This document shows positions 26,682 through 48,344 of a DNA stretch of 64,000 nucleotides, piece after piece (within the stretch, counting starts at the first letter, position 1; each line of letters begins with the position of its first letter). Source of the DNA: Patescibacteria group bacterium (lineage in GTDB: Bacteria; Patescibacteriota; Microgenomatia; Daviesbacterales; UBA10151); assembly GCA_023379125.1 (NCBI GenBank), contig JAMCSY010000004.1, forward strand, positions 58,479 through 122,478, in the 5' to 3' direction. A model generated the notes under the pieces. It was not told the origin of the DNA. It searched no databases and saw only the letters and a program-made list of their open reading frames with translations. Position numbers and translations under genes: made by a program.

Positions 26682-26695
26682 AGTGATACAACATG

Positions 26696-26711
26696 TGCGA
26701 CACGTGTCGCA
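26696..26711. promoter_or_regulatory. Perfect 16-bp palindrome (TGCGACACGTGTCGCA), likely an operator
   Basis: Perfect inverted repeat. The 8-bp palindrome ATCGCGAT at 26714-26721 follows, placed just before a sigma-70-like promoter. Confidence 0.5.
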
Positions 26712-26736
26712 TTTATCGCGATAATACGGTCTATTC

Positions 26737-26765
26737 TTGACATTACTTACTTTAATTGTTAATCT
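26737..26765 (+). promoter_or_regulatory. Sigma-70-type promoter
   Basis: TTGACA, a 17-bp spacer, then TAATCT. Confidence 0.45.
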
Positions 26766-26897
26766 GAATATATATTAGCCCAGTCGCCCAGTGATATAGG
26801 CGCATACGAGGCACAAACCGAATCTCATTAGTCTTTTGACTGTTTGAGAACGGATATCACATAAGTTGATATTCGTTTCTTGGCAGTCTTTTTTTAT

Positions 26898-26923
26898 GGC
26901 ACCCAAGAAGCGGGTGCCTTTTT
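26898..26923 (+). terminator. Rho-independent terminator-like hairpin
   Basis: GGCACCC-aagaagc-GGGTGCC followed by TTTTT; the next ATG is 3 bp after it. Confidence 0.5.
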
Positions 26924-26926
26924 AGT

Positions 26927-27139
26927 ATGGAAATGAAGACTAATACACAACTACCGATATCTAATAGCCGACTTAGGTTATCTCCTAAAGCTATATCCGA
27001 TTTTCAACAAGCTTTTTTTGAAGAATACGGCATAAGAATCTCCGAACAAGAAGCTAATACTTGCGGTTTAAGGCTCCTTAGATTAGTCAAACCTGTTTAT
27101 AAACCCATTCCAGTCAAAAGTTATGGAAAATCCAAGTAG
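26927..27139 (+). CDS. Hypothetical small protein
   Basis: 70-aa ORF. Confidence 0.35.
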   Translation: MEMKTNTQLPISNSRLRLSPKAISDFQQAFFEEYGIRISEQEANTCGLRLLRLVKPVYKPIPVKSYGKSK

Positions 27140-27365
27140 CACTTATCGAACAAAAGATCTGTATCTTGCTTCCTATCTATTTTCGGAAGGAATCGAGTTA
27201 TCGGGATCAGACAGAGTCGGATCAGTATATTGGTTCGTCTTTGCAAATAAAGTTGAATGCGAACGCCTAGCAAATCTCTACTGGACAGATCGAGCCAACT
27301 CGAAAATTAAGTCGTTTGTAGAAGCCATACGGTCTTTGAAGGACATTATTTTCGCTAAACCTTAA
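27123..27365 (+). CDS. Small phage/mobile-element-type protein; paralog of the 40823 ORF
   Basis: KDLYLASYLFSEGIELSGSDR...VYWFVF...LKDIIF aligns with DSYLLACYLLSESCQLVSIDR...MVFIFQ...LKAMIY at 40823-41068. Confidence 0.5.
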   Translation: MENPSSTYRTKDLYLASYLFSEGIELSGSDRVGSVYWFVFANKVECERLANLYWTDRANSKIKSFVEAIRSLKDIIFAKP

Positions 27366-27378
27366 TCAGACTAATGAG

Positions 27379-27825
27379 ATGAATATGGACAACATGGATA
27401 GAAACAAGCTAATTGAACGTTATAGACAGCGTTCAGAAGCAAATAAAGGAATTGAAAATCATTTTTTATGGACAAGGGTCAATTTTTCGACCGCAAGAGA
27501 TGGTCATATCCGAAAGCTTGGAGCAAACGCGTTTGCAGTCTTTATGGTAATTCGTACTTATATGGATAAAGAAAAAATCGCTTATCCGTCGCTTGCACGA
27601 ATAGCTTATCAGTCAAACTTAAGTGTTCGAACGGTAGAAAAAGCATTAAATAAGCTCGTCGACGAGGGTTGGATTAAAAAGGTAGGCAGAATGATCGATA
27701 AAGGTAAGTTCGGAAATACAAGATATCTAATACTCCAACATGATCTTATAAGAGGGACTGATGACCCGAGTTTTATGAGTAAGCCAATAGCAAATATTGC
27801 CAATGGTAATCAAGGCAACCAATAG
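27379..27825 (+). CDS. Winged-helix DNA-binding protein (replication-initiator/DnaD-like HTH)
   Basis: SLARIAYQSNLSVRTVEKALNKLVDEGWIKKV looks like a winged-helix motif. Confidence 0.4.
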   Translation: MNMDNMDRNKLIERYRQRSEANKGIENHFLWTRVNFSTARDGHIRKLGANAFAVFMVIRTYMDKEKIAYPSLARIAYQSNLSVRTVEKALNKLVDEGWIKKVGRMIDKGKFGNTRYLILQHDLIRGTDDPSFMSKPIANIANGNQGNQ

Positions 27826-27952
27826 CAAAAAACCAACTATGGATAAATACCAAGTAAGTATTATCTATGTTTTAAGAACTATTAATAAGAATAATTGTTT
27901 TATATATAAAAAGAAGAAAAGTTTACAAAATTGACACTATAAAAAAAGAGAT

Positions 27953-28453
27953 ATGGCAAACGAACTAGTCAGAGAAAAAACGAAGCAAAAGTTTCTAGAT
28001 ATCCTCTCCGAAGAGGCAGGAGGTAATATCAGCGAGGCTTGTAAAGCAGTTGGTTTTAGCAGGCAAGCCATTAATGAATGGCGGTTAAACGACCATAGCT
28101 TTGATAATCGAGTACAACAGGCAATCTTAAACGGAAAAGAGGATCTAGCTGATTTAGCAGAAACACATCTACAAAAAAGAATTCGTAATGGGGACACAAC
28201 AGCAATTATTTTTACACTTAAATCTTTAAGACGAACATTTTTTGGGGAAAGAATTGAAGTCGAAACGGCAAAAAAGAGCAACAATGGTCGAGCTATTAGT
28301 TTAACTCCTGGCTTTTCAAAAACTCTGTTAGCAATCGGTTTAAAGCAAGCCCCGACTAACGTTCTTACCGAAGAGCAAAGAAAACAACTTAATGGATTAG
28401 TTGGAATTTTTGAAGATTATTATGATAATCTTAATGAAGACGATAAGTCTTAA
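27953..28453 (+). CDS. Terminase-small-subunit-like HTH protein
   Basis: GGNISEACKAVGFSRQAINEWRLNDHSFDNRVQQAI resembles terminase small subunit / Psq-type HTH proteins. Confidence 0.45.
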   Translation: MANELVREKTKQKFLDILSEEAGGNISEACKAVGFSRQAINEWRLNDHSFDNRVQQAILNGKEDLADLAETHLQKRIRNGDTTAIIFTLKSLRRTFFGERIEVETAKKSNNGRAISLTPGFSKTLLAIGLKQAPTNVLTEEQRKQLNGLVGIFEDYYDNLNEDDKS

Positions 28454-28459
28454 TTCAAT

Positions 28460-30289
28460 ATGAATAAATTCTTTATATATTGCCGAAAATCTTCAGAACA
28501 GGAAGATAGACAAGTTTTATCTTTACCTGGGCAAGCTCGAGAACTGCAAGAATACGCCAAAAGGGAAGGTTTGACGATTGTCGATACTTATCAAGAATCA
28601 AAAAGCGCACATTGGGCTGGCAGAATTGACTTTAATAACATGCTTATGAGGATTAGAAGCGGTGAAGGTAACGGAATAATAGTCTGGGACGAATCTAGAA
28701 TAGCTAGAAACGCTTTAGATAGCGGTACCGTAATCTATATGATCGATCTTCAGGAAATTGTAGAGATTAGGAAGCCTGGAAAAGTATATAAAAACACCCC
28801 TGACGATAAAAGTTGGTTAGCTATGTGTTTTATGATGTCTAAAAAGGAATCAGACGATAAAGGTGTGAGTGTAAAGAGAGGGCTAAAAACTAAAGCAGAA
28901 AAGGGTTATTTGCCTAGTGGAGCTAAAGCAGGTTATATGAACGATAAATATGCGGAAAAAGGTAATAAAACACTCTTAGTAGATCCCGTCAGATTCCCAC
29001 TTATAAAAAAGACGTGGGAAATGTTCTTAACTGGAATTTACAGCCCTCCACAAGTATTAAATAAGCTAAATGACGAATGGGGGTACAGAACTCCCCAACA
29101 TAAACGCATAGGTGGTAAACCAATGACAAGAAGTCAGATATATAAAACTTTAGCCGACCCTTTTTATTATGGAGTATTTGAATATCCCGAAGGTAGTGGA
29201 AATTGGTATCAGGGCAAACATGAACCCATGATAACCAAAGATGAGTTCGATAGAGCGCAAATGCTTCTTGGCAAAAAAGGTAGGCCAAGACCTAAAACCC
29301 ATGATTTTACCTATACAGGCTTACTTACTTGTGGCGAATGCGGAGCGATGATTACTGCTGAAGAAAAATATCAAGTCATATGTCCTGTTTGTAAATTAAA
29401 GTTTGCCTCTCTCAATAAAGATAGCTGTCCGGAGTGCAAAACAAGAATTGAAGATATGATTAAACCAACACTTCTTCACTACACTTATTACCACTGCACC
29501 AAACGTAAGAAAAAAACATGCTCACAGCTAGGCATTCGTCTCGAAAAAATGGAGGCTCAAATTGAGGGATTATTATCCCGAATCCAAATATCAGAGCGCT
29601 TCAAAAATTGGGCGATTAAGTATTTAAATGAACTGAACGTTATTGAAACTGAAGATAGAGACGTGATCTTAAAATCACAACAAGAAGCTTATGATGATGT
29701 GGTTAAACGAATTGATAACTTAATAAAGCTTAAGATCTCACCTCAAAACACCGATGGTTCATTACTCTCCGATGATGATTTTAAGAGACAAAAAGAGGAT
29801 TTAATGAAAGAAAAGTCTACGTTACAAGAAAAACTCGGAGACACAGACAATCGTATAAATAAGTGGGTAGAGTTATCAGAAAAAACGTTCAACTTTGCAT
29901 GCCATGCTCGCTATTGGTTTGCTAATGGCGACACAGAAACGAAAAAGCAGATATTAATGGGGATAGGTTCGAACCTAACGCTAAAAGATAAAACTGTGCT
30001 TGTAGACCTAGAAAAACCATTACAGTTTATAGAAGAAGCTAAAAACGAAGTACCGGAAATATCACCAATGTTCGAACCTACAAAAAAGGGCCTCACTGAG
30101 ACCCAATTAGGGGTTTTATATTCTCAAAATCCAACTCTGCTCCCTAGCCCTAAGGATATTATACTGCCCCAATTTGAGGCTATTTTAAAGGCATTTACTA
30201 ACCCTATTTGGATGGGAGAAATGCGCGTTCGATGGAATGAAATTAAGAAATTAAGCCGAGAACCTAATCCGGCACTTGTAGTAGCATGA
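28460..30289 (+). CDS. Large serine recombinase (integrase)
   Basis: N-terminal resolvase catalytic domain (IYCRKSSEQEDRQVLSLPGQ), recombinase domain, Cys4 zinc ribbon (CGECGAM...CPVCK...CPECK) and a C-terminal coiled coil. Confidence 0.85.
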   Translation: MNKFFIYCRKSSEQEDRQVLSLPGQARELQEYAKREGLTIVDTYQESKSAHWAGRIDFNNMLMRIRSGEGNGIIVWDESRIARNALDSGTVIYMIDLQEIVEIRKPGKVYKNTPDDKSWLAMCFMMSKKESDDKGVSVKRGLKTKAEKGYLPSGAKAGYMNDKYAEKGNKTLLVDPVRFPLIKKTWEMFLTGIYSPPQVLNKLNDEWGYRTPQHKRIGGKPMTRSQIYKTLADPFYYGVFEYPEGSGNWYQGKHEPMITKDEFDRAQMLLGKKGRPRPKTHDFTYTGLLTCGECGAMITAEEKYQVICPVCKLKFASLNKDSCPECKTRIEDMIKPTLLHYTYYHCTKRKKKTCSQLGIRLEKMEAQIEGLLSRIQISERFKNWAIKYLNELNVIETEDRDVILKSQQEAYDDVVKRIDNLIKLKISPQNTDGSLLSDDDFKRQKEDLMKEKSTLQEKLGDTDNRINKWVELSEKTFNFACHARYWFANGDTETKKQILMGIGSNLTLKDKTVLVDLEKPLQFIEEAKNEVPEISPMFEPTKKGLTETQLGVLYSQNPTLLPSPKDIILPQFEAILKAFTNPIWMGEMRVRWNEIKKLSREPNPALVVA

Positions 30290-31268: not shown

Positions 31269-31958
31269 ATGGATGAATTTACTTTTGTAAAACTTCTAAA
31301 ACAAATTTTCACCCAGGAAGGCTTCTTAGCAAAAAGAGAAATAGGAGTAGGTTATGGAGTTGCTGATTTAGTTTTAATCAAAAACACGGCCATAAACAGC
31401 AATAACTGCTCAATCAGAAAAAACCATAAACAATACACTCCACTCCTAAATGAAAAGTATTTCCAAACGTTAAAGGTGTTACCTGACGAAAATGACCAAG
31501 ACAAATCCCTCCCATTTAGTCTTATAGCTAAACAAACAAACTTCTCCGAAAGCTACTTGCGTTACACCATCCTTAAAAAATTGGAAAGGCACGGTTACGT
31601 TAAAAAGGACGGCAATAAAAAGTATTTTAAAGTTAACGGTTGGTTGCCAATAGCCAATGAGGTAATAGCTATTGAGGCTAAACTGAAGGATTGGAAAAGA
31701 GGCGCGATACAAGCAAATAGGTATAGGGCATTTGCTAATAAGGTTTATTTAGCTATTCCTAAAGAAACGGAACGATTAGTTGACAAAAAATTCCTAAAGA
31801 AAATTAACGTCGGCTTAATTATTTTAGACGTAGAGAAAAATGCTAAAAGAACGGTTATCGCTAGTAAGAAGTTTAAACCCTTAGACGAATATAAACACCA
31901 TTTAGCGGCAGAATATTTCTGGAATAAAAGAGAGTTAATAAATTTTACCCAAATTTAG
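31269..31958 (+). CDS. Hypothetical protein
   Basis: 229-aa ORF. Confidence 0.4.
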   Translation: MDEFTFVKLLKQIFTQEGFLAKREIGVGYGVADLVLIKNTAINSNNCSIRKNHKQYTPLLNEKYFQTLKVLPDENDQDKSLPFSLIAKQTNFSESYLRYTILKKLERHGYVKKDGNKKYFKVNGWLPIANEVIAIEAKLKDWKRGAIQANRYRAFANKVYLAIPKETERLVDKKFLKKINVGLIILDVEKNAKRTVIASKKFKPLDEYKHHLAAEYFWNKRELINFTQI

Positions 31959-32384
31959 CTTCTCTAGGCTGTCTATAAACCTTTTCCCCGTTACCGCTCT
32001 GATACCATCATAGTTTTTAATATCCAAAACGTCCTTATCCCCAGAAATTATTATTTGAGCGCCGCATGCTTTAGCAACTCGAAACCAAATATCATCGTCT
32101 TTATCACGGGTAATACTCACTCCTTCCAGCACTTCGTATGGTTCAACGATTTTTATAAGCGATCGGTAATCAAGAACTAACTTTTCAGGAGTATATATTT
32201 GTTTTTTCCAATATTTTTGGACCCTTTTAACTAGGATTTTTTCCTTAAATTCAGCAAAGGTTTCCTCACTGCCATACAGCACTATTTTCTTTGCTAAGGA
32301 CAAGTTAAGTATTTTCCGAGGATATCCGGGAAACCCTAACATACCGGAGAGCATTATGTTTGTGTCTGGAACTACTTTTATCAT
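31935..32384 (-). CDS. PIN-domain nuclease (PIN_3 family toxin-like), last gene of the R-M operon
   Basis: MIKVVPDTNIMLS ... DKDDDIWFRVAKACGAQIIISGDKDVLDI matches the PIN_3 acidic-residue pattern. Confidence 0.65.
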   Translation of the reverse strand: MIKVVPDTNIMLSGMLGFPGYPRKILNLSLAKKIVLYGSEETFAEFKEKILVKRVQKYWKKQIYTPEKLVLDYRSLIKIVEPYEVLEGVSITRDKDDDIWFRVAKACGAQIIISGDKDVLDIKNYDGIRAVTGKRFIDSLEKLNLGKIY

Positions 32385-33574
32385 TGTTCATTATCAAGTT
32401 CATTTAGTAATTGATTTAGGGAAGCTTCATCACTTTCAGTCATATATTCCCAATCACTAGCAGTATCAAGAACAGCAATCCATCGTTGTAAGTGATCGGT
32501 TTTAAACGGCGAGGCGTAATCCCTAACATATTGGCCAACAAGCGATACCGCACTTTGAAGACTACTTTTCATTAACTTAATACGCTCTTCACGACTAAGA
32601 GGCGCTAAACTATCCATCACCGCCATTCGTCTTTCAAGGAAATGCAACTTCTTATTTTTCGCGTCATTTGGTATACCACCATTACAGTAAGAGCAACTAC
32701 ACTGATAACCGATTTTCTTAAGCTCGACATCGTTAGCGTAATCAAATATTTCCGGTACATATGTCCAGCCACCATTTCTTCCAAATCCCTTTTTACGAGC
32801 CTCAAGGTTTTTAACGGAAAATGTTTCACCGGCACCTAAACCGCTTGAAAAACCACTTCCCCCTATTGCGCTAAGTACCTCGCCGAAACCACCAAGGTGT
32901 TTGGTAAATACATATTTGTCTTTGGATAATTGGAATACTAAATCAGCTAAACCGATGAGGTGGTCTAAGTCTGCCTTACGGGCATCAAGGTCGTTAATAG
33001 TAACAAAATATCCAGCAATTTTGTCTTTAAAGTCGCCGCTGTACATGTCAACCACATAGTTCCTGACCTGTGGCCTCAACAAAACTCCGCCGCCGAGGTT
33101 AATACTGGCAAAAACCGGTTTCTGAATATGCTGCTCTTCTAAATACCTTAAAGTTTCGGAAAGTAGAGTTAAATTAAGGGTAAATTTAATATCATCGGTG
33201 TCCTCGCTATAAAAAGCAGGTGCAACAATAACACAGGCATTGGCGTTAACTTGAGAGGTAACCGCCGGAATTATTACCTTATTTAACCTTTCAGTAGCGT
33301 TACTATAAAGAGTTTCGGGGACAATATTGTCGCCGTAAGACAGCTTTTTATAATTCTTTTTGTTCCGTGCGCCGGGATAAAGTAATTGAACCGTTGCAGG
33401 ATCAACGATAATAGGTTCTCCCAATTCAACGGCTTTTTGCGCTACCACAGGCCGCCACACAGTGTGATGTAAGTCCATCAATACCACTGGAACTTCAATT
33501 CCAGCTTCAAATATGCTTAAATCCGCAATTTTCGGTATAAAAATCGGCAATTTGCTAAATAATTGGTCGCTCAT
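32381..33574 (-). CDS. Hypothetical 397-aa protein between hsdS and the PIN gene
   Basis: Overlaps both neighbours by 4 bp; Gly-rich segment GGFGEVLSAIGGSGFSSGLGAGE; CSCSYCNGG. Confidence 0.5.
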   Translation of the reverse strand: MSDQLFSKLPIFIPKIADLSIFEAGIEVPVVLMDLHHTVWRPVVAQKAVELGEPIIVDPATVQLLYPGARNKKNYKKLSYGDNIVPETLYSNATERLNKVIIPAVTSQVNANACVIVAPAFYSEDTDDIKFTLNLTLLSETLRYLEEQHIQKPVFASINLGGGVLLRPQVRNYVVDMYSGDFKDKIAGYFVTINDLDARKADLDHLIGLADLVFQLSKDKYVFTKHLGGFGEVLSAIGGSGFSSGLGAGETFSVKNLEARKKGFGRNGGWTYVPEIFDYANDVELKKIGYQCSCSYCNGGIPNDAKNKKLHFLERRMAVMDSLAPLSREERIKLMKSSLQSAVSLVGQYVRDYASPFKTDHLQRWIAVLDTASDWEYMTESDEASLNQLLNELDNEQ

Positions 33575-34926
33575 AATTGTTCACTACTAAATGTCTTTGA
33601 TAACACAGCTTGTGTTAACTTTGCAACTTTTAACTCAGCTCTTTCAATTTGTTTCTCAACTTGGTTAGCAATATCAAAGTAAAATTTTACTTGGCGTACT
33701 ATTTCTTCCTGTTCTGCTAGAGAACAAAATGGTACTTCAAACTTTCCGAGTTTTTGAGCATTGATGTTTGATTGACTGACACCGTCCGTCTTTACTTGAT
33801 AGCAGAAATCGCGGGCATACTGTGAATTAAGGCAATAATTTAAATATTCGGAATTAAGCTCAGGAAAATTGTTTATTTTTATAAGGTATCCGGCAAATAT
33901 TGCCTCATGTTCACCTCTGTAAATACTTGTTTTGCCAACTAACTCGGGACTATTCGTACGATTAAACAGTACGTTGCCGGTTTTCAGTTTATATTTTTCA
34001 ATTTCGTCTGGGTCTGATGTGTAGACCAAACTTTCCCAATCAATTTCACCATTTTGTAAATTACCCATACGTAACACGGGTATTTTTCCTTCGGGGTTTG
34101 ACTTCGCCGAGGTTCCATACTGAAACCCTTCGCAAAGTTTATCCAATGCTACAAGTTCCCACTCATCGGGCAAATCAGCGATATTATTTTCTTCCTCGTA
34201 AGAATATATCGTTTCAATTTTCTTTTTCTCTGTACTCGTGGCCTTGCTTAGCCGTCGAGCTTTAAGGTCGTCAACTACCTTTTTGGTTGATTCTTGTTGG
34301 TTTTTTTCTCTCCACTCCTCAGTAAGCCTGCCTGTTATCGCGGCGGATATAATGGCTTGTCGAAATTTCTGTACCAATTTTTTGGCCTTTTTAATCCCTT
34401 TAAGCGAAAGACTAATTTTATTAATATCATTTTCTAACTTTTCTGCTACGATGTGCTGAAGTGCGATGTCCTCTGGATATGAAATTTCTAGTTCTTCGAA
34501 TGCCCGTTTTGAAATACCCGTAAAGGTTGAACCCTGTCCTTTTTCTTCAAGGAGAGGTTTTACAACTTGAGCAAAATAAAAAAGAAATATACTATCGATT
34601 CGATTGTTTGGCCTTAAGGAAGCTAAACCTCTACCAATACAGCACTTTTCCGCAGCCATGTTTACATCACCTATGGGAGCTCTTACCGATACTAATACAT
34701 CCCCTTTTTCTGCTATTTTTTTAGGTTCGTTGGTATAAACCGTTACTTTTGGGTATTTAATTCCAAAATCCTTATTTCCTTGGAAAAAAGGTAGACCATT
34801 GCCTTTTTTGTTATACGAAGACGATGGGGGCGATTGTCCCATTATAATTTGAGCAACGTCTGGTAGTGGATTAGTTACCCAAACATCATTAGGTCTATTT
34901 TGTTGTTCCGTTTTCGAGTTCTGCAT
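33571..34926 (-). CDS. hsdS: Type I restriction-modification specificity subunit
   Basis: 451 aa with two target-recognition-domain-like halves separated by conserved helical spacers; sits directly after hsdM. Confidence 0.75.
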   Translation of the reverse strand: MQNSKTEQQNRPNDVWVTNPLPDVAQIIMGQSPPSSSYNKKGNGLPFFQGNKDFGIKYPKVTVYTNEPKKIAEKGDVLVSVRAPIGDVNMAAEKCCIGRGLASLRPNNRIDSIFLFYFAQVVKPLLEEKGQGSTFTGISKRAFEELEISYPEDIALQHIVAEKLENDINKISLSLKGIKKAKKLVQKFRQAIISAAITGRLTEEWREKNQQESTKKVVDDLKARRLSKATSTEKKKIETIYSYEEENNIADLPDEWELVALDKLCEGFQYGTSAKSNPEGKIPVLRMGNLQNGEIDWESLVYTSDPDEIEKYKLKTGNVLFNRTNSPELVGKTSIYRGEHEAIFAGYLIKINNFPELNSEYLNYCLNSQYARDFCYQVKTDGVSQSNINAQKLGKFEVPFCSLAEQEEIVRQVKFYFDIANQVEKQIERAELKVAKLTQAVLSKTFSSEQL

Positions 34927-36325
34927 ATATTTGCTCTAAACTATTGGTTGCTTCCTTTAGCTCTGATAAAGCATCGGTTATAAGCTCTTCCGGCTCACCA
35001 ATTTCTTCACTATCCTCAATGTCCTCCTCCTTGAGCCACTTAAAACTATCAAGTTTGTAATTTTTGTCCTTTACCTGTTGCATCGTAAATTTCTTCCAAC
35101 GATTTTCATTTGAGTCGTTTTCATTTCGCGATGATTGCCCATTCGCATTTTCGCCATAACATTTTTCAAACTCGGTAAAGTGTGCCGGAGTTAATGGTCT
35201 GTCTTTTTTAGTAATTCCCGGCACATTTGTACGCGCGTCATATATCCAGACATTTTCAGTCGGCATACCCTTAACAAAAAACACAACATTAGCTTTTACA
35301 CCCTGGCTGTATGGGGTGAATGTTCCTCGGGGTAAACGTAAAATTGTATGCAAATTACAGTCCTGCATTAGAAGTTTAAATACTTCCGCTGCTTGGTCGC
35401 CGAAAAGTACGTTGTCCGGTAGCACAACGGCCGCACGGCCACCTGGTTTAAGGATTGTTAGTATGTGCTGGACAAAATTTAGTTGCTTATTACTTGTACC
35501 TACAGTAAAGTCCTGGCGTTCGGGTATTTGGTTAGCGCCTTTAGTACCGAATGGAGGATTAGTTAGGACTACATCGTAACGATCGCCCTTATCAGGTTCA
35601 TAAATAGAGTCGCCTAAGCGGATATGTGATTCAATACCGTGTAAGTATAGGTTCATTAACGCTAGTCTTCGCGGTCTTGCTACTAATTCAGTTCCAAAAT
35701 AAGTCTTTTTCCTTATCCGTTCTAAGTCTTCACGGTTAATCGCGCTTCCTGTTTGTTGTAAAAACCATTCGTAAGCGCTTAATAAAAAGCCGCCTGTTCC
35801 AGCTGCCGGATCACATATAGTAAAGTCTTTGGCTGTCCGAGGATCAGGCTTCATTACACTAACTATGGATTGAATTAAAACACGCGGGGTAAAGTATTGG
35901 CCTGCGCCTTTTTTACCTTCGGCGGCTGACTTTTCCAGCAACCCTTCGTAAGCTTGGGCTTTAACATCAATGTTTAATCCTGTCCATTCAATTTCATCAA
36001 TCAAGTCTATTAACCTTTTCAGGTTTACCGGCTTAGTAAATTTTGATAATGCCTCGGCAAATATTGCGCCTAATAATCCTTCCTGTTTGGCTAATCCGCG
36101 TAAAAGCTCACTATAAAAATCGGTTAACTCTGTACCGGCTTTTGATTTCAATACTGACCATGAATACTCTTTAGGAATTACTGCTCCTCTTTCCTCAGCC
36201 ATTTTAAGAAACAGTAAATAAGTTAGCTGTTCAACGTAATCGCCGTAATCCATCCCGTCATGGCGGAGAACATGGCAGTATCCCCATAATTTGTTAACAA
36301 TGTTTGTGTTAGTTTGCATAGGCAT
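34895..36325 (-). CDS. hsdM: Type I R-M N6-adenine DNA methyltransferase subunit
   Basis: LTNPPFG catalytic motif, AdoMet-binding DPAAGTGGFL and an HsdM N-terminal domain. Confidence 0.9.
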   Translation of the reverse strand: MPMQTNTNIVNKLWGYCHVLRHDGMDYGDYVEQLTYLLFLKMAEERGAVIPKEYSWSVLKSKAGTELTDFYSELLRGLAKQEGLLGAIFAEALSKFTKPVNLKRLIDLIDEIEWTGLNIDVKAQAYEGLLEKSAAEGKKGAGQYFTPRVLIQSIVSVMKPDPRTAKDFTICDPAAGTGGFLLSAYEWFLQQTGSAINREDLERIRKKTYFGTELVARPRRLALMNLYLHGIESHIRLGDSIYEPDKGDRYDVVLTNPPFGTKGANQIPERQDFTVGTSNKQLNFVQHILTILKPGGRAAVVLPDNVLFGDQAAEVFKLLMQDCNLHTILRLPRGTFTPYSQGVKANVVFFVKGMPTENVWIYDARTNVPGITKKDRPLTPAHFTEFEKCYGENANGQSSRNENDSNENRWKKFTMQQVKDKNYKLDSFKWLKEEDIEDSEEIGEPEELITDALSELKEATNSLEQIYAELENGTTK

Positions 36326-39011
36326 ATACCTGTGGCATACTTGCGTTTAGCTCGCTTATAAACGGTAATAACTTATTGTCAAAATCATCGTTAATGCGCT
36401 TAAAATTGCCGCCTAAGTTAATAAATATCGGCATATCGTCAAAGTCTTCCGGCTCAATGGTTAGGTTTTCAACTAAATGTAGTTTTATTAGCTCCAACCA
36501 TTTTCGTTGCTTATCGGTTAGGTTTTTACCACCGATTACTTTTTCCATTGCCAGGTCTACACGTTCTTTAGCCGATAACAACGGCTCGTCTTTAGCGGCG
36601 TGTTTGACCATAGAAATAATATCAGCTAAGGGGTATTTATAAGCGCGGCGTAGGTTACTTTCGGTAAAGCGCTCCGGTTGTTCGGCTAATGATTGTCTAA
36701 GTTCTTTCAGCGCTTCGGTATTCCATGCCTGCGGCTTTTGTAAAACTATACTTATAGCTTCAATATGCTCTGGGTTGTCCTTTACAAACTGCTCAAATTG
36801 TTGGATATAATCCTCAGGTTTTAACTCGCGCCCGTCAGTTGTCCTAAACACATACTGCGATCCAACGGTGTCTTCCTGTTCAATCGCCCTTATAAACCGT
36901 TTTGGCGGCCTTGGGTAGTTTTTCAGTAGGTCAATAAACTTAGGATCGGTTAATACTTTCAACGTACCCACTCTATCCTCCGCCAGTTTATCAGGTAAAT
37001 TTTTTGCAAAAGCGCTTATATCACCATCAGTAATATACTTCGCAAACATTTCCCGGCCTTCGGCGGTAATGTTTTTGGCTATTCGTTGTAGTCTTTTAAC
37101 TAAACATCGGGTGTTGTATTCAACATCAACGTTGTTATTAATCGCGTTTATTATTTCCTCAATCGTACGGGTAGGGTTAACCGGCGTTACTTGGGTAATA
37201 CCGGTACTATTTTTAAAGGCTTCTAGTAGGGTTCCGTCAAAACAGTCAAATACGGTAAAGTGAGTTTTGGGTGGTGTGCCTAACCCATTAGGGAAATTAC
37301 TGCATAAACGCGTACCGCGTCCAAGCATTTGTTCAAACAAAATGCGGGACTTTACCGGCCTTAAAAATATAATGTTTTCTATTGCCGGTATATCAACTCC
37401 GGTTGAAAGCATATCAACGGTTACTACTATGTGCGGCTCTGGGCGATTTCTAAACTCTTTGATACGGGTTAACGGCCTATCAACTGTTGGTGAACCGGTT
37501 ATTTTCTGAACAAAAGCATCGCCTCTGCCAAATACATCACGGCAAATATCAACGAGTTGATCGGCATGGGAAGTGTGGGATAAATCGTTATCAGCAAATA
37601 TTAAAGTCTTTGGAAAACGGCCGGTTTCTTCCTCTTGTTGTAAAGCGTACTTTGCAAACTCTTGGATTATTTTGCGGTTACTATCAGGTGCGGTAATATC
37701 CCGCTCAACTTCAGTAACTTCAAAATGGCGTTCATCCTCAAGTAAATCAAGCTGTTGCGCGCCGGTATTCGGATCAACTTGTTCAACTTCTTCCCCCTCT
37801 TTTAAGGTAATCCCCTCAAGGCGGACACCGGAGGAAATTTTGACAGCATCATAATCAACTAAGTAACCGTCTTGTACTGCTTGTTCATAGGTATAACGGT
37901 AAGCAATTTCTTTAAAATAACTTGTGGTATGGGCGGCAGGAGTAGCGGTTAATCCGATTTTAACAGCGTCAAAATGGTCTAAGACACCGCGCCATTTGCT
38001 TATTTCTTGTGAAGTATAACCGCGGTGGCATTCATCAGCGATAATCGTATCAAAAGCGTTAATCGGCATATCAATTTTATCGGCATCATCATCGGGATCG
38101 TAATCACCGCTATAACTAAACATACCCTCTCGGCCGTAAAGGTTTATTTGCATCCGTTGGATCGTTGAAACATAAACAAAAACTTGGTTTCCGTCAGGAT
38201 CAGTTAAGTAAGCGGTTGGGATTACATTAAAATCAACCTTTTCATTACTGTCAAAATCATCAATTTTAAAACGTTGGCTATACACCTGATAAATTTGGTT
38301 AAACTTCAAACCGTTTTCTGCCTCATAAGCGGCAAACTCCATGACGGCTTGGGCGGCTAAGGCTTTTCTATCAACTAAAAATAGTATTCGTTTACTTGTA
38401 CCGGACTTTAATAAACGATAAATAAGCGAAGCTACGGTAAAGGTTTTGCCTGTACCGGTTGCCATAGCGACAAGCATTGAACGCTTATTATCGGTAATCG
38501 TTTTTTCGATCGCGGTTATAGCATCACGTTGATAATAGCGTAGCTTTCCCTCTGCGGGTGGGTTTTGGGCAAACCATTTTGTATTTTCGTAAGCGTCATT
38601 ATTAAGGTATTCAATTAAGGCTTTAGGTGTATGGAACTCCTGTATTTGCCGAGAACGGCTAGGGTTATGTCTTAAGTCTTGGAACCATATAACCTCACCG
38701 TTAGTTGAGTATATAAACGGAACCTCAATTCCGCTTTGCCCAGCTCCTTTAACGTAGCGCTGAGCTTGTTGGAGAACATTTTGGGGACCTAAGGATATTT
38801 TCTTAGCTTCAACGAAAGCGACTAGCTTCCCATTAGCAAAAAGTGCGTAATCAACCGGTCCGGTTGCCGTCATGTATTCTTCAACGGCGGTTTTGTGTAA
38901 GTTTGTGGTGTCTAAACCTTCCTCATAACGGATTATTTTATCCCAACCCGACTTTTTAAGTTTTTCGTCGATCCACTTCTTACGAGTGGTCTGCTCGTCG
39001 ATAATTTCCAT
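36309..39011 (-). CDS. hsdR: Type I restriction enzyme R subunit (helicase-nuclease)
   Basis: Walker A MATGTGKTFT, DEAH-box IIADECHRG and the helicase C-terminal QMLGRGTR motif. Confidence 0.9.
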   Translation of the reverse strand: MEIIDEQTTRKKWIDEKLKKSGWDKIIRYEEGLDTTNLHKTAVEEYMTATGPVDYALFANGKLVAFVEAKKISLGPQNVLQQAQRYVKGAGQSGIEVPFIYSTNGEVIWFQDLRHNPSRSRQIQEFHTPKALIEYLNNDAYENTKWFAQNPPAEGKLRYYQRDAITAIEKTITDNKRSMLVAMATGTGKTFTVASLIYRLLKSGTSKRILFLVDRKALAAQAVMEFAAYEAENGLKFNQIYQVYSQRFKIDDFDSNEKVDFNVIPTAYLTDPDGNQVFVYVSTIQRMQINLYGREGMFSYSGDYDPDDDADKIDMPINAFDTIIADECHRGYTSQEISKWRGVLDHFDAVKIGLTATPAAHTTSYFKEIAYRYTYEQAVQDGYLVDYDAVKISSGVRLEGITLKEGEEVEQVDPNTGAQQLDLLEDERHFEVTEVERDITAPDSNRKIIQEFAKYALQQEEETGRFPKTLIFADNDLSHTSHADQLVDICRDVFGRGDAFVQKITGSPTVDRPLTRIKEFRNRPEPHIVVTVDMLSTGVDIPAIENIIFLRPVKSRILFEQMLGRGTRLCSNFPNGLGTPPKTHFTVFDCFDGTLLEAFKNSTGITQVTPVNPTRTIEEIINAINNNVDVEYNTRCLVKRLQRIAKNITAEGREMFAKYITDGDISAFAKNLPDKLAEDRVGTLKVLTDPKFIDLLKNYPRPPKRFIRAIEQEDTVGSQYVFRTTDGRELKPEDYIQQFEQFVKDNPEHIEAISIVLQKPQAWNTEALKELRQSLAEQPERFTESNLRRAYKYPLADIISMVKHAAKDEPLLSAKERVDLAMEKVIGGKNLTDKQRKWLELIKLHLVENLTIEPEDFDDMPIFINLGGNFKRINDDFDNKLLPFISELNASMPQVYAYAN

Positions 39012-39026
39012 AAATTTTTATGCTTA

Positions 39027-39218
39027 TTATTTATTTTTATTTTTTTCTATAAACCGTTCTATATCCTCAGGCTTATAACGCCTATCACCACGTACACTTA
39101 CCTTGACGGCGGGAAGTTTACCTTCCTTATCCCATCGGCGCAGGGTTTCAGGGTTAACCCCTAATATTTCTGCTGCCTCGCGAATTTTCAGTAACCTCAA
39201 CTTTTTACCGGTAGTCAT
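39027..39218 (-). CDS. Xis/AlpA (MerR-superfamily) excisionase-type HTH protein
   Basis: LLKIREAAEILGVNPETLRRWDKEGKLPAVKV; its stop lies 16 bp before the hsdR start. Confidence 0.65.
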   Translation of the reverse strand: MTTGKKLRLLKIREAAEILGVNPETLRRWDKEGKLPAVKVSVRGDRRYKPEDIERFIEKNKNK

Positions 39219-39912: not shown

Positions 39913-40629
39913 ATGAAAAATACACGGATAATTCTGAATAAATATCACTATATTCTTAGGGCAATTAGTTTGTCTGATAAATACAAAAGAGCACTAAACG
40001 AAATTACCGCTGATGCTAAATCAATAGGATGCCCACTTCCGGTTAAGGGCTTTATTAAAGCGAGTGATTATACAAACTGGCAGGAGCAAATAGAAAAGCA
40101 CGGGCGAACAGCTCATGATTACGCTCAAAACGTATTGAAATTATTTAACCTGAAAACTAACGATGAGCTATTAACAGGCCGGTTATGCATGATGATGTTC
40201 TTAAATGTTAAAGCTCCTCCGACCATTGGAACAATTGGTTATTCTGCTGACTTAGACAACGAAAAAAACGAGGTCAACATTAAGTTAACTTTTTATCCTT
40301 GGACAACTAAAGAAGACTTTGACGGATTGGAAATTTGGAAAGACGTTGAATCATTTAGGAAAATGTTGCTCACCCCACGGCATGTAACAAAAAATAAGGA
40401 ATGGAAAACTTTTGAACGCGATTTAAAAGTTTATCACCGATATCAGCAACTTCAGAAACAATATCCAAAAGAAAAATCAGTCGTTCATATACTCCTAAAT
40501 GACAAAAAATTTGAAAAGTTTTACGAAAGCGATGATCAAGCAAATGATTTAGCAATAGTATCGGAACAAATATATAAAATAATAAAACGTTGCAGAACAA
40601 CATTAGGAAATAACTTTTCTACCGTTTAA
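39913..40629 (+). CDS. Hypothetical protein
   Basis: 238-aa ORF. Confidence 0.45.
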   Translation: MKNTRIILNKYHYILRAISLSDKYKRALNEITADAKSIGCPLPVKGFIKASDYTNWQEQIEKHGRTAHDYAQNVLKLFNLKTNDELLTGRLCMMMFLNVKAPPTIGTIGYSADLDNEKNEVNIKLTFYPWTTKEDFDGLEIWKDVESFRKMLLTPRHVTKNKEWKTFERDLKVYHRYQQLQKQYPKEKSVVHILLNDKKFEKFYESDDQANDLAIVSEQIYKIIKRCRTTLGNNFSTV

Positions 40630-40822
40630 TCACCCCTCATTAGACTTCCGTGAGTTTTGGTCATCCGTACATCAGAATTAAGGTGTTATGGATACCGATA
40701 AGGATAAAGAAATTCAAGTAGCTATTCAAAAAGCGGCTGAACAATGGGTAAACCTCATGATGATGTTTTTACGAAGTAAACGCACCAAAAGAGGTTCAGC
40801 GAATAAAAAATAAATAATTAAT

Positions 40823-41068
40823 ATGGATAAAAATACATTTTCTACCGACTCTTACCTCCTTGCTTGTTACCTCCTTAGTGAATCCTGCCAACTTGTTTCC
40901 ATTGATCGTACTAATCCACGAAGAATGGTTTTTATTTTCCAAGAGTCTAAACGCCGAAAAGAACTTACTGATAATTTTTTAGCATATCAAGCAAGTATCG
41001 AGCCTCACCGGTTTCATAGTGCTCAAAGGGATTTAAAAGCGATGATTTATCAACGAACGACTGGGTAG
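40823..41068 (+). CDS. Small phage/mobile-element-type protein; paralog of the 27123 ORF
   Basis: Shares the motif order of 27123-27365 (see that entry). Confidence 0.5.
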   Translation: MDKNTFSTDSYLLACYLLSESCQLVSIDRTNPRRMVFIFQESKRRKELTDNFLAYQASIEPHRFHSAQRDLKAMIYQRTTG

Positions 41069-41106
41069 TTAATATACCCACGAAAAATAAGAATAAGCAT
41101 AAAAGT

Positions 41107-41514
41107 ATGGGCAAATTATTAGAGCTAGTAACAATAAAAATAAATTTCAAAATGCAGGGCAATTTTTTAGCTACCGTCACTTTAAATTGGCAAGACGAAT
41201 TCGAAGTTCGTTATTGTCGAATATACCGGTCAGGAGCAGGAAAAATATTCTTACAACCGCCGGCTTTAGGAAATGCAAATTGGGTAAAGTGTTTCGGAGT
41301 ACTTAATTATGATGACTGGAAATGGCTAGAAAAAAAGGTAATTGATCAGTTTAAAGAAGAATTAAAAGAAAAAATCGGCGAAGGAACATTTTCGCCCGCC
41401 GTTTTAAAAAGGATTGAGGAATCGGAGGAGGAAATCGTTAATCCTAATGACATACCGGACAATTTAGGAGAAACCGATATTAACTCTATTCCTACTTATA
41501 AGAACAAACAGTAA
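41107..41514 (+). CDS. Hypothetical protein
   Basis: 135-aa ORF with an acidic C-terminus. Confidence 0.4.
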   Translation: MGKLLELVTIKINFKMQGNFLATVTLNWQDEFEVRYCRIYRSGAGKIFLQPPALGNANWVKCFGVLNYDDWKWLEKKVIDQFKEELKEKIGEGTFSPAVLKRIEESEEEIVNPNDIPDNLGETDINSIPTYKNKQ

Positions 41515-41570
41515 CTATATAGTAACTAAGTAACTATATGTATATATGAGTAAAAAGGGAGTTTACATTA
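41510..41570. repeat. Iteron-like short direct repeats (AGTAACTA three times, plus AGTAAAAAG twice)
   Basis: cagtaactatatagtaactaagtaactatatg...gagtaaaaagg...agtaaaaagag. Confidence 0.4.
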
Positions 41571-41621
41571 GTAAAAAGAGTATATAGAATTAAGTAATAG
41601 TATGTATAAGTAATTAAGGCT

Positions 41622-41828
41622 ATGAATAAAATGAATTATAGAGAAATATTAGGAGAAGCAAGAGCAGTACACTTTGCTATGCATAGAGGCGCTATTACTT
41701 ATGAAAAAGCGGTCGAGTTAACGAAACCTTTACTGGGAATTCTTAATGTTAAGGCTACGGAAATAGCCAAGCGGTATAAAATTCGGCCGCGATTATTAAA
41801 ATTTCAGGATTTAGGAAGAACTATATGA
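41622..41828 (+). CDS. Hypothetical small protein
   Basis: 68-aa ORF. Confidence 0.35.
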   Translation: MNKMNYREILGEARAVHFAMHRGAITYEKAVELTKPLLGILNVKATEIAKRYKIRPRLLKFQDLGRTI

Positions 41829-41876
41829 TACATAAAGCGCGTCAGGTGTCGCACTCATTATCAGTTAATTAAAAAT

Positions 41877-43401
41877 ATGAAAAATTGTTTTATTTACCTA
41901 CGAGTTTCAACCGAAGAACAAGCTAAGGAAGGCTTTTCAATCGAAAACCAGAAAAGAGCCTGTATTGAATTTGCAAAATCAAAAGGATATCACGTTAAGC
42001 GTGTTTTTATTGATGACGGAAAGAGCGCTCGAACTACCGACAGAGCCGCTTTACAAGAAATGCTTAAGTTAGCTAAGGGACAGGAGGTTCAAAATGGATA
42101 ACCAATTACTAATAGACGCAATAATCATTTATAAAATCGACCGATTTGCTCGAAATGTTGGCGATTTTTCCGACATGTATAAAGAACTTAAAAATAAGGG
42201 AATTAAGTTAATATCCGTTAATGAGGGTGATTTGATGGAGGGAACAAGCCTTATACCCAACATTTTCGCTAGTGTGGCTCAATGGGAAAGTGAAGTTAAC
42301 AGCATGAGAACGCGAGACGCGTTAACACAAAAGTTCCGAGAGGGTTGGCAACCTACTCCTCCTCCTATCGGTTATCGAAGTGTTGGAGCTGATCGCGAAC
42401 GCAAGACTTGCGAACCGGATCCTTATACTGCCCCAATCATACGAGAGCTTTTTGAAATATATTCAACTGGAAACTATTCGATTTACGATTTACAAAATTG
42501 GCTAGCCGAGCGAAACATATCCTCTAAAAGCGGTACAAACTTAGGACATAGCGTTATCGATACGATTCTAACCAATCCTTTTTATTACGGATGGATCAGG
42601 TGGCATGGTGAAGGGAAAATGGGTAAGCAAGCGCCGCTTATAAGCAAGGACTTATTCGATACGTGCCAATATGTTTTAGCTAAACATCGTAATTTTTTAA
42701 TGCGAAAACGGCTCCACCAATTTTTACTTAGAGGCTTTGCTTATTGTAGTGAGTGTGGACAGAGGTATACCGCTGAATGGCATTTTAAACCCAGGTTTAC
42801 TAGAAGAAACGGCAAAATAGCTTATTACCATTGTCCCAAAATGAACCGTAACGGATGTCCCGCTCCTTATGTTGAAGTATCGGAACTTGAGGAACTTGTT
42901 AGAAATACCGTTAAATCAATTCAATTTAGCCAAGAATTTGTTGATGCGGTAGTAGCAAAAGCTAAGGAGTTTGTAGACGATAGCCGTAAACGGGCAACTT
43001 CTGAAACTCAAGGCTGTATTAATCAGCGAATAGCTCTTGAAAACCGGCGTAATAAGCTAGAAGACGCTTTATTAGACGGAACTATTGATCGGGTGGTATT
43101 TAAGAGAAAACACGATGAAATACAGGAACAGCTGGGTTTTATTGATAGCCGAATTAGGGAAATAGAAACAAACTCACGGGTGGATATAAAACTAATTGAG
43201 GACGTTCTTAACTTTACAAGGGATATTGGCAGGACCTATGACGAAGCGGAAGAATTTCTACAACGACACTTCTTAAGGTTTTTCTTTGAAAAAATTATTG
43301 TAAAAGAGAGGAAAATTGAGAGGGTTATTTATACGCCGGTTATAGCTACTTTAGTAGAAAACCGTCAGGTTATAATAAAAAACCTTATGCTCCTCCGGTA
43401 G
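41877..43401 (+). pseudogene. Large serine recombinase interrupted by a +1 frameshift near 42094-42101
   Basis: The 74-aa ORF (YLRVSTEEQ catalytic Ser) continues in the 435-aa ORF (KIDRFARN ..., recombinase domain, zinc ribbon CSECGQ...CPKMNRNGC) in the +1 frame. Confidence 0.65.
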
Positions 43402-43461
43402 GATTCGAACCTACAACCTTGTCGTTAACAGCGACCTGCTCTACCGTTGAGCTACAGAGGA
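43390..43461 (-). tRNA. tRNA-Asn (anticodon GUU)
   Basis: Reverse complement reads TCCTCTG-TA-GCTC-AACGGTA-GAGC-A-GGTCG-CTGTTAA-CGACA-AGGTT-GTAGG-TTCGAAT-CCTAC-CGGAGGA-G. The UCCUCUG start resembles canonical bacterial tRNA-Asn. It overlaps the recombinase stop by 12 nt. Confidence 0.8.
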
Positions 43462-43672: not shown

Positions 43673-44539
43673 TTGAGAAAGAAAAAGGAAGGAAATGCTT
43701 CGTTAGTTGGCTTTTTAGCCTTAGTGTTTCCTTATTTTGTAATTGAGTCAAGGAGTGTTTTTTATATGGAAAGAACAGAATTAAATCGCCGCAATTTTAT
43801 TATTAAAACAAGCCTCGCCGTAACTGGGGCTGCTATTACTGGGCCTTTAGCTGCCCATGCCGAAAGCTTGCATTCCCCTCTTCCAGATGCAGCGCCACCT
43901 CCAGAGCCTTTACCAAATCTAGCAGAGTATTTAAAAGAAATTGAACCAATTAGACTCTCTTATCAATCAACCATAGCCAATGATGAGCTTTTTAGTGTGA
44001 TTAAAAATTTACCCACTCAGAAAAGGATTGACCTGTTTAATCAATATTTTCCCATGTATGAGGCAGCCCACCGTGCGTACAATGTCCCAGTTATCCGTTT
44101 ATTTGTTATCCATTTACGGGAAACTGCTGCTTCTACTCATCCCCGACCTGATAATTTATCAGCCAGAGGAGGTATGCAAAGAAATCCTGAGTTCTATCCG
44201 GACGAGAAGGCAGTTAAAGCAGCCGAAGGCTGGCATCGTCTGAGCCAGTTAAAGCAAAATTACGACCATAACGGCCGTTCCGAAACTCGGGATTATCAGG
44301 AAATCATGTTTGCTGCTTGGAAATTGAGAAAAGATGCTAATAACGCAATCATCAAGCAATCCTACCTAACTGACACCCAAGCTTTAGACGAAGCTCAAAC
44401 CACTTATTGTGATGCAACAGAAGCCAGATTTCGTAATAATCATATTGGGCAAATTCAAGATTATTATGATCAGCACAAAAATGATCTTAATTATGATTAC
44501 CACCAAGCGAAAATTCAACAAATCTTGGAGATGAAGTAG
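43673..44539 (+). CDS. Secreted protein with a twin-arginine-like signal (likely start at the Met near 43766)
   Basis: MERTELNRRNFIIKTSLAVTGAAITGPLAAHA resembles a Tat signal peptide. Confidence 0.45.
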   Translation: MRKKKEGNASLVGFLALVFPYFVIESRSVFYMERTELNRRNFIIKTSLAVTGAAITGPLAAHAESLHSPLPDAAPPPEPLPNLAEYLKEIEPIRLSYQSTIANDELFSVIKNLPTQKRIDLFNQYFPMYEAAHRAYNVPVIRLFVIHLRETAASTHPRPDNLSARGGMQRNPEFYPDEKAVKAAEGWHRLSQLKQNYDHNGRSETRDYQEIMFAAWKLRKDANNAIIKQSYLTDTQALDEAQTTYCDATEARFRNNHIGQIQDYYDQHKNDLNYDYHQAKIQQILEMK

Positions 44540-44540
44540 G

Positions 44541-48296: not shown

Positions 48297-48344
48297 ATTT
48301 TGCCAGGATTATTTATCTTCCCCATTCCCTGGTAGAATTAATTA

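Follow-up and report, generated by a model that had tools for sequence, protein, structure and literature searches.

We have analyzed a stretch of 64,000 nucleotides (hereafter the window) from a Patescibacteria group bacterium (contig JAMCSY010000004.1, positions 58,479 to 122,478) that carries a complete Type I restriction-modification (R-M) operon and, directly behind it, genes for a 397-aa protein (named here U397) and a PIN nuclease. The original prediction, made from the sequence of the window, took these last two genes as a pair fused to the 3' end of hsdS. Actually, the unit consists of three genes. The third conserved gene (31269-31958, plus strand), which that prediction did not mention, codes for a 229-aa protein (C229), and its 3' end overlaps the 3' end of the PIN gene by 24 bp. 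U397, followed by PIN and facing the convergent C229, forms a self-contained cassette of ~2.3 kb that is kept in all the loci examined and that, judging from its proteins and its neighbors, is probably a new anti-phage module. According to the open reading frame (ORF) listing and the domain scans, the gene order on the minus strand is HTH_17, hsdR, hsdM, hsdS, U397 and the PIN_3 gene. The features of this part of the window are:

31269..31958, plus strand: C229, predicted 229-aa PD-(D/E)xK nuclease with a winged helix inserted between the D and ExK strands (E24, D33, E136-x-K138, Q148), convergent with PIN.
31935..32384, minus strand: PIN_3 (VapC-like) nuclease, 149 aa (PIN_3 9e-14 and TIGR00305 1.8e-19, both over the cut-off); its ATGA start overlaps the U397 stop.
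32381..33574, minus strand: U397, 397 aa, predicted (beta/alpha)8-barrel protein of the tRNA-guanine transglycosylase (TGT) superfamily, with a zinc motif (C292, C294, C297, H311), a DPxT motif (D58) and an acidic amphipathic C-terminal tail of ~20 aa.
33571..34926, minus strand: hsdS, specificity subunit of 451 aa with two target-recognition domains (Methylase_S in two stretches, 4.7e-30; PADLOC Specificity_I 1e-72).
34895..36325, minus strand: hsdM, N6-adenine methyltransferase subunit of 476 aa (N6_Mtase 2.6e-64; HsdM_N; PADLOC MTase_I 1.2e-172).
36309..39011, minus strand: hsdR, type IB (EcoAI/EcoEI-like) restriction subunit of 900 aa (ResIII 9e-37; EcoEI_R_C 2.8e-36; Helicase_C 9e-9; weak HSDR_N 5e-7; PADLOC REase_I 2.8e-101).
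39027..39218, minus strand: HTH_17/MerR-type (excisionase-family) DNA-binding protein of 63 aa, first gene of the operon (Pfam HTH_17 7.9e-15; TIGR01764 4.5e-9; PADLOC mad1 3.4e-15).

The cassette was surveyed by tblastn with the window proteins against 9 genome loci and 41 metagenome loci, together with loci from an exact-protein look-up. We fetched 57 loci (46 non-redundant) and reached others through homologues of C229, for a total of ~49 non-redundant loci (designated below by L and a number). All three genes were found in every surveyed locus save two, whose contigs end inside the cassette, and also in two further loci reached through C229 homologues. A two-gene unit of U397 and PIN was thus ruled out, C229 being always present. 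The hosts include members of the candidate phyla radiation (CPR; Paceibacterota, Microgenomates, Parcubacteria), Gammaproteobacteria, Pseudomonadales, Paludibacteraceae, Elusimicrobia, Omnitrophota and Ignavibacteriales, while no relative of the cassette was found among the viral contigs of IMG/VR. An NCBI protein of a Patescibacteria-group bacterium (187-kb contig) has the same sequence as C229 (100% identity). No model of PADLOC v2 matched U397, PIN, C229 or the distant relatives described below, generic kinase matches aside, and neither U397 nor C229 falls in a family of Pfam or NCBIfam. In a literature search that was not exhaustive, the set of a TGT-like, a PIN and a restriction endonuclease-like gene was not found described. 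The cassette is an undescribed combination of known kinds of parts, and the Type I R-M system an ordinary new member of a known family.

U397 itself had no match in Pfam, NCBIfam or PADLOC, and its family is rare, with 45 clusters among 5.8 billion sequences in a word-indexed search; a full profile search gave 72 representatives at E<1e-30 and 700 at E<1e-3. The AlphaFold2 model built from 45 sequences (predicted local distance difference test, pLDDT, 90.5; predicted template modeling score, pTM, 0.90) is a (beta/alpha)8 barrel with the zinc subdomain that is specific to TGTs, and the zinc residues C292-x-C294-x-x-C297...H311 are 84-98% conserved. When a broad-family profile of U397 was compared with all the Protein Data Bank (PDB) sequences, the archaeal enzyme ArcTGT was matched over exactly the zinc motif (E 0.0046). 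Besides, hhalign of a profile of ~170 sequences against Escherichia coli Tgt (a sequence identical to PDB 10fa_A) produced a colinear alignment over 303 columns (probability 25%, E 8e-4), in which the zinc motif of U397 falls on C302/C304/C307 of the E. coli enzyme and D58 of the conserved DPxT motif on its catalytic D89. The wider profile was needed for this; with the narrow alignment A1 the CxCxxC motif alone was aligned. Among the ~170 superfamily members, D58 (88%), P59, C292, C297 and H311 are conserved. By its modeled fold and its zinc site, we assign U397 to the TGT superfamily.

U397 ends in a tail of ~20 residues, acidic and amphipathic (...ExLNxLLxEL...), where the pLDDT is low. This tail is confined to the subfamily linked to PIN, with a median of 31 aa after W365 compared to 10 aa in the other superfamily members. 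The presence of the tail in the PIN-linked subfamily, together with the ATGA coupling between both genes, suggests that it contacts PIN as the tails of VapB antitoxins contact VapC.

Among its distant members, the U397 superfamily includes two kinds of protein, one of ~670 aa with an N-terminal Ser/Thr kinase domain and one, stand-alone, of ~410-430 aa. One locus of each kind was analyzed. In the first, the gene for a 213-aa homologue of C229 (E 4e-18) comes right after that of the kinase fusion (P0101), the stop of one overlapping the start of the other; in the second, the stand-alone protein (P0150) has a convergent and overlapping C229 homologue (E 2e-12). There is no PIN gene in either of them. 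On this small sample, the pair of TGT-like protein and C229 would be the conserved core, and PIN or the kinase an exchangeable third part. A sibling of the cassette armed with a kinase is present at L058 (1771-4454; also in L059 and L060), where a 680-aa fusion of Ser/Thr kinase and TGT-like protein is followed immediately by a C229-family nuclease and then by a 254-aa unknown protein, with a fragment of an N6_N4 methylase upstream. The kinase domain of the fusion resembles the PD-T4-6 and mad6 defense kinases.

Such a core might be read as a minimal base-exchange R-M system resembling Dpd, in which U397 would write a non-canonical base in the host DNA as a mark of self, C229 would cut the unmarked DNA, and PIN or the kinase would be accessories. 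The conserved pair is convergent with overlapping 3' ends, as are many Type II R-M pairs, the cassette sits among R-M systems, and the marking of DNA by TGT-fold enzymes has precedents (PMC10164549, PMC12839542). On the other side, there are no genes for base precursors (queC/D/E, folE), DpdB or DpdC among the annotated neighbors, and D58 is not invariant. De novo queuosine synthesis is usually missing from CPR bacteria with very small genomes, to which many of the hosts belong. The tightly coupled PIN and the PIN-specific tail of U397 would also be left without explanation. We consider this proposal unlikely, and favor a defense cassette in which the two nucleases act behind a base sensor.

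Regarding these nucleases, E24, D33, E136-x-K138 and Q148 of C229 are invariant. Its model (pLDDT 92.5) shows the alpha-beta-beta-beta-alpha-beta core with the E...D...ExK residues of PD-(D/E)xK enzymes, and there is a faint match to Mrr_cat. A lack of the conserved acidic residues of PIN in an alignment had been named as evidence against the original prediction; D7, E45, D94, D97 and D116 turned out to be invariant in 45 of 45 cassette homologues. PIN_3/VapC-type toxins are RNases that are typically found in toxin-antitoxin (TA) modules (PMC5499597), and a classification of PIN domains lists the PIN_3 family in no other role than that of TA toxins, apart from an unrelated ATP-grasp/HNH context. 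In VapBC modules a small DNA-binding antitoxin is encoded just upstream of the toxin; here that place is taken by the 397-aa TGT-like protein, with no small ORF between them.

The R-M operon in front of the cassette is, as its domains indicate, an intact and conventional type IB system and a divergent member of the EcoAI/EcoEI family. The family traits are all found, i.e., ResIII, Helicase_C and EcoEI_R_C in HsdR, N6_Mtase in HsdM, two target-recognition domains in HsdS, and overlapping genes. The differences are the HTH_17 gene in front, the extra cassette behind, and scores that stay under the NCBIfam equivalog cut-offs (NF008521, 612 vs 729; NF046051, 296 vs 550). The hsdR start (ATG) is located 15 nt past the HTH stop. 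Assuming the longest-ORF starts, the overlaps are 17 bp for hsdR/hsdM, 32 bp for hsdM/hsdS and 4 bp for both hsdS/U397 and U397/PIN, the last two being ATGA stop/start overlaps. No terminator was found between hsdS and U397 in a consensus promoter/terminator scan, the output of which was at chance level. In these respects, the claims that the Type I system is complete, with hsdR, hsdM and hsdS all intact in the domain scans, and that the U397 and PIN genes are joined to it by overlaps were borne out, these two genes being translationally coupled to hsdS. The cassette would then be co-transcribed with the R-M operon from its hsdS end. An HTH_17 gene, in L010 and L017 a homologue of the one in the window, is also the first gene in the R-M operons of L010, L014 and L017, which makes a role as R-M controller protein plausible. 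Membership in the methylation-associated defense system (MADS) was rejected. Its mad1, mad2 and mad5 models do match the HTH, M and S proteins, yet M and S score far higher with the Type I models, and equivalents of mad3, 4, 6, 7 and 8 are absent from the operon.

In 17 of the ~49 loci, R-M genes point into the cassette at one end or the other, directly adjacent to it with gaps of 2-170 bp. Of the 13 loci whose two flanks are visible over 3 kb or more, 8 have such R-M adjacency. The arrangements are:

Into U397, Type I R-M: the window and L001.
Into U397, Type I R-M in the order HTH-M-S-R: L010, with a 2-bp gap.
Into U397, Type III Mod-Res: L017, with a gap of at most 9 bp.
Into U397, Res-like gene: L027.
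Into U397, EcoRI-type methylase and GmrSD/HNH: L053.
Into C229, HsdM-HsdS: L006, L008 and L029.
Into C229, BanI R-M: L005.
Into C229, HaeII R-M and a gene that is Vsr-like by inspection only: L043.
Into C229, C5 methylase (phmmer match to the Pfam-confirmed enzymes of L005 and L043), an unassigned 346-aa protein and a Vsr-like gene: L049.
Into C229, BsaWI R-M: L044.
Into C229, N4/N6 methylase and HNH: L014.
Into C229, N4/N6 methylase: L036 and L066.
Into C229, TaqI_C fragment: L009.

R-M systems number only a few per genome, so adjacency in a third to a half of the loci appears far above chance, as judged by this general knowledge and not by a matched background. With this same proviso, the predicted link of U397 and PIN to R-M systems holds. 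The supposed tie to Type I systems and to the 3' end of hsdS does not, since Type I in two gene orders, Type III and several Type II systems adjoin either end; the candidate of a back-up module specific to Type I was accordingly ruled out. There are also loci without R-M genes, specifically L003/L012 (Microgenomates), L007, L016, L030, L046, L047 and L065, and in some of the loci of this kind a 70-aa XRE-type HTH gene is found 70-130 bp upstream of U397. A wide occurrence of the pair outside any R-M context had been named as a reason to abandon the idea of a linkage, and on this point the result is mixed, with 17 of ~49 loci adjacent to R-M and several others (e.g., L003/L012, L065) free of it. 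In L047 the cassette adjoins a Schlafen/AlbA_2-HATPase_c_4 protein, and in L065 (9716-13203; Ignavibacteriales) it lies beside a Bil-type ubiquitin-like defense system (BilB-like, Prok-JAB, BilD_N/ThiF) and a Peptidase_S24 gene. The whole pattern fits a defense-island cassette that regularly becomes part of R-M operons, whatever their type and at either end.

The variety of adjacent R-M types and the several loci without R-M make a direct protein-to-protein guard of one R-M enzyme, in the manner of PrrC, unlikely. The proposal of a guard like PrrC/RloC, put forward in the original prediction, fails also in that there is no similarity to these proteins and no ABC-ATPase. A freer form of the same analogy is a toxin module directed to tRNA. 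The TGT-like protein would bind the anticodon loop and guide or restrain the PIN RNase, infection or loss of the element would lead to tRNA cleavage and a stop of translation, and C229 would be a regulator or a second effector. The RNase nature of PIN_3/VapC-type toxins and their usual place in TA modules (PMC5499597), the ATGA overlap of U397 and PIN, like that of toxin-antitoxin pairs, the tail specific to the PIN-linked subfamily, and a linkage to R-M operons as known for prrC are all in line with it. However, across subfamilies the TGT-like domain is constantly accompanied by the DNA-type nuclease C229 and not by PIN, which argues against a purely tRNA-directed model. There is no PrrC/RloC similarity, and a linkage to every R-M type with no preferred end speaks against a specific guard at the protein level. 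We regard such a module as quite unlikely and keep to the defense cassette with a sensor and two nucleases.

The R-M operon and the cassette are part of a larger genomic island. In the operon stretch the CpG observed/expected ratio is 1.22, compared to 0.66 elsewhere in the window. The GC content is 0.401 vs 0.378 in the rest, the highest among 114 segments of 7.3 kb. Of the predicted rise in CpG and GC, it is the CpG that constitutes the real signal, the GC being only marginally higher. At 1-kb resolution the CpG step is sharp, from ~22.5 to ~43.5 kb, with ratios of 1.1-1.4 vs ~0.5 in the host flanks, and marks an island of ~21 kb, about three times larger than the operon stretch. The host backbone of the window (1-22000 and 44000-64000) is strongly depleted in CpG (observed/expected ~0.2-0.7), and the housekeeping genes rpoD and dnaG are found directly outside the island. 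The features related to its mobility are:

28460..30289, plus strand: large serine recombinase of 609 aa (Resolvase, Recombinase and Zn_ribbon_recom), in the island context and outside the cassette.
42094..43401, plus strand: another large serine recombinase (435 aa), at the right-hand border of the island and adjoining tRNA-Asn(GTT); the CpG step ends at ~43.5 kb.
43389-43461, minus strand: tRNA-Asn(GTT), at the right edge of the island, overlapping the last 13 bp of the recombinase ORF.

The tRNA-Asn(GTT) is likely the integration site. At the left edge, no exact repeat of at least 12 nt shared with the tRNA-Asn edge was found. A 21,154-bp contig of an independent sequencing run (19.7 kb read) has the same genes and apparently little besides the island, which suggests that the island is polymorphic or excisable in the population. 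Its horizontal acquisition, as had been predicted, is well supported by the CpG step, the two serine recombinases and the tRNA-Asn at the edge. tRNA-Asn is also a natural TGT substrate, and its location at the edge of the island is probably a coincidence.

The left end of the island carries, on the minus strand, several defense-like genes, i.e., an HNH endonuclease with HNH_repeat (22984-23730), a 296-aa unknown protein (23748-24638), a 483-aa Schlafen/AlbA_2 protein (24638-26089) and an XRE HTH_3 gene (26098-26361). Two similarly built modules are found on the plus strand (26397-30289 and 39913-43401), each with a DUF5659 gene (27123-27365 and 40823-41068) and ending in a large serine recombinase. 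They flank the block of R-M and cassette in the same orientation, and it is possible that two integrative elements, in tandem or nested, make up the island. Several small HTH genes are also present. Between the first recombinase and C229 (30286-31214, plus strand) there are a 189-aa ORF and a 112-aa ORF, the latter with CxxC...CxxC cysteines like those of zinc ribbons. The two ORFs are conserved in L001, again adjacent to the cassette, with 57% and 55% identity; in L046 there is a weak counterpart of the 112-aa one.

Mobility genes are frequent near the cassette in other loci too, with serine recombinases in 9, tyrosine integrases in 6 and type IV secretion system (T4SS) genes in L010. In the latter (1-2530 and 10490-15437), the cassette and a Type I R-M (HTH-M-S-R) sit inside a conjugative element with TrbC, TrbL, TraG-like and relaxase-like genes. 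The cassette might then be plain selfish cargo, where U397 and PIN would be an unusual type II TA that stabilizes the island, C229 would serve mobility or homing, and the adjacency to R-M would be mere hitch-hiking. The abundance of recombinases, integrases and T4SS genes among the neighbors, the contig of the other sequencing run with little beyond the island, and the absence of the cassette from IMG/VR viral contigs would agree with this, as would the related serine-recombinase elements of L006 and L007, which have the cassette in common and differ in their R-M cargo. Yet a 397-aa TGT-fold protein with conserved zinc site and pocket residues far exceeds the needs of an antitoxin, and so elaborate and conserved an enzyme fold argues against this simple role. 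The pairing with C229 outlasts the swap of PIN for a kinase, and a search around the cassette, although not exhaustive, showed neither terminal repeats nor target duplications. We find it improbable that addiction alone accounts for the cassette, and return to a function in defense.

The cassette would be a module against phages and other mobile genetic elements (MGEs), a second line beside the R-M systems. What we infer about its substrate and about the division of labor among the three proteins, including the inhibition of PIN by the tail, is the following. The barrel of U397, a base-flipping and base-binding transglycosylase fold, would recognize a guanine-type base in nucleic acid and possibly excise or exchange it. 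As a substrate, the best candidate would be a guanine that carries a modification, for instance one of the 7-deazaguanines by which phages evade restriction. C229 would cut the DNA marked by U397. The acidic tail at the C-terminus of U397 would keep PIN inactive, much as a VapB antitoxin does, until engagement of the sensor frees it as a suicide RNase. The support for a defense role comes from the R-M adjacency, the Bil system of L065 and the Schlafen/AlbA_2 proteins found nearby in the window and in L047. TGT-fold proteins have already been described in immunity, in Dpd (PMC10164549), Cap10 (10.1101/2025.04.06.647259) and BRC systems (PMC12839542), and the Dag defense proteins attack DNA containing 7-deazaguanine (10.1101/2025.10.29.685425). 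We would give an even chance to a defense cassette that works, broadly, as a base sensor, a DNA cutter and a restrained suicide RNase; for the nature of the substrate our confidence is much lower.

Several observations weigh against this interpretation. D58 is replaced by Asn in ~9-13% of the members, and the nucleophile of Tgt, D264, aligns to S253 of U397 (in the alignment of 25% probability). For these reasons U397 may lack a transglycosylase or glycosylase chemistry and only bind, as the non-catalytic QTRT2 does. Three residues from S253 there is E250, which is Glu or Asp in ~85% of the members. The hhalign probability of only 25% is accompanied by the lack of a Pfam TGT match over the threshold (for PF01702/TIGR00449, none with U397 and 20.9 bits vs 26.3 with the distant relative P0150). 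Co-occurrence is the one line of evidence behind the interaction of tail and PIN. The R-M adjacency could reflect the clustering of defense islands and the compactness of MGEs, ~40% of the well-flanked loci being without R-M. Finally, no genes for preQ0/queuosine biosynthesis, ParB-like DpdB, QueC-like proteins or CD-NTases were found in the annotated cassette loci.

A more general and more tentative proposal is that the pair of TGT-like protein and PD-(D/E)xK nuclease with winged helix-turn-helix (wHTH) defines a new immune class, built on a transglycosylase-fold protein able to read a base of the invading nucleic acid, excise it or swap it. It could operate as a type IV-like restriction of phage DNA with deazaguanine or other guanine modifications that escapes the neighboring R-M, or as a methyl-independent R-M by base exchange, with interchangeable death effectors, either the PIN RNase held by the tail or the fused Ser/Thr kinase. 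We consider this possible, if doubtful. If true, it would explain why the cassette is wired into operons of every R-M type, and if U397 does excise or exchange a specific DNA base, it would be a possible enzyme tool. The small size of the cassette, its spread from CPR to Proteobacteria and its natural variants, in which a kinase replaces PIN or the pair stands by itself, make it directly testable, and its fusion at the operon level to all R-M types offers a handle on how first-line restriction is coupled to back-up or modification-directed defense.

In comparison with known systems, the type II TA module VapBC (PIN_3/TIGR00305) shares with the cassette a PIN protein with all its acidic residues, an upstream gene overlapping by ATGA and an upstream protein whose acidic end might fit in the active site of PIN. 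It differs in that the partner here is a 397-aa protein with an enzyme fold instead of a small DNA-binding antitoxin, and that a third, convergent nuclease gene is obligatory. As in the case of PrrC and RloC, a candidate suicide RNase (PIN) is encoded in a presumed Type I R-M transcript, and its partner has the fold of an enzyme that recognizes the tRNA anticodon. However, there is no kinship in sequence or domains and no ABC-ATPase, and the cassette occurs also with Type II or III systems or alone. No ATPase domain or PrrC/RloC model was matched in Pfam, NCBIfam or PADLOC, so that the R-M linkage alone is in common and membership was rejected. The Type IV (modification-dependent) restriction enzymes and defense glycosylases (Mrr, GmrSD, Brig1, Dag1/2) offer further parallels. 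In E. coli, mrr and mcrBC adjoin hsd in the immigration control region, and C229, with its faint match to Mrr_cat, is likewise a predicted PD-(D/E)xK-wHTH nuclease beside classical R-M genes; from the Dag proteins, DNA with 7-deazaguanine is known as a target of defense (10.1101/2025.10.29.685425). C229 does not belong to any of these families by sequence, a TGT fold as the reader would be new, and the dependence on modification is purely hypothetical.

The closest parallels are the systems that use the TGT fold itself. Dpd consists of the DNA-guanine transglycosylase DpdA, DpdB, DpdC and the restriction genes DpdD-K (PMC10164549), and it resembles the cassette in having a zinc-site TGT-fold protein beside nucleases in a context of defense and MGEs. 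In contrast, the cassette has three genes vs about eleven, its partners are PIN and a small PD-(D/E)xK-wHTH nuclease, and it lacks DpdB (ParB-like), DpdC, the helicases and the preQ0 pathway genes; the sequence similarity is limited to the zinc motif. DpdB, DpdC and the helicase/nuclease set were absent from the Pfam-annotated neighborhoods, and the PADLOC models for Dpd gave only a chance-level match to DpdF (E 0.037) in one distant relative. Cap10 of type IV CBASS (cyclic oligonucleotide-based anti-phage signaling system) is a TGT-family enzyme that conjugates a nucleobase to a protein. There is no Cap9/QueC, CD-NTase or CBASS effector near the cassette, neither Cap9 nor CD-NTase was found in the annotated loci, and PADLOC gave no CBASS match. 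The absence of genes for deazapurine synthesis, DpdB/C, Cap9 and CD-NTase from the annotated loci argues against membership in Dpd or in type IV CBASS. U397 might also be a protein modifier like Cap10 that conjugates a nucleobase to PIN or C229 and so primes or restrains them; with no QueC-like Cap9 or CD-NTase in any annotated locus, and Cap10 not being the best fold match, we hold this as very improbable. TGT-fold enzymes have been recognized in immunity only recently, DpdA writing deazaguanines into DNA and Cap10 conjugating them to a CBASS enzyme. The partner set of the cassette, with two nucleases and no genes for precursor synthesis, indicates that it probably acts differently from both, and would represent a third, compact and phylogenetically widespread use of the TGT fold.

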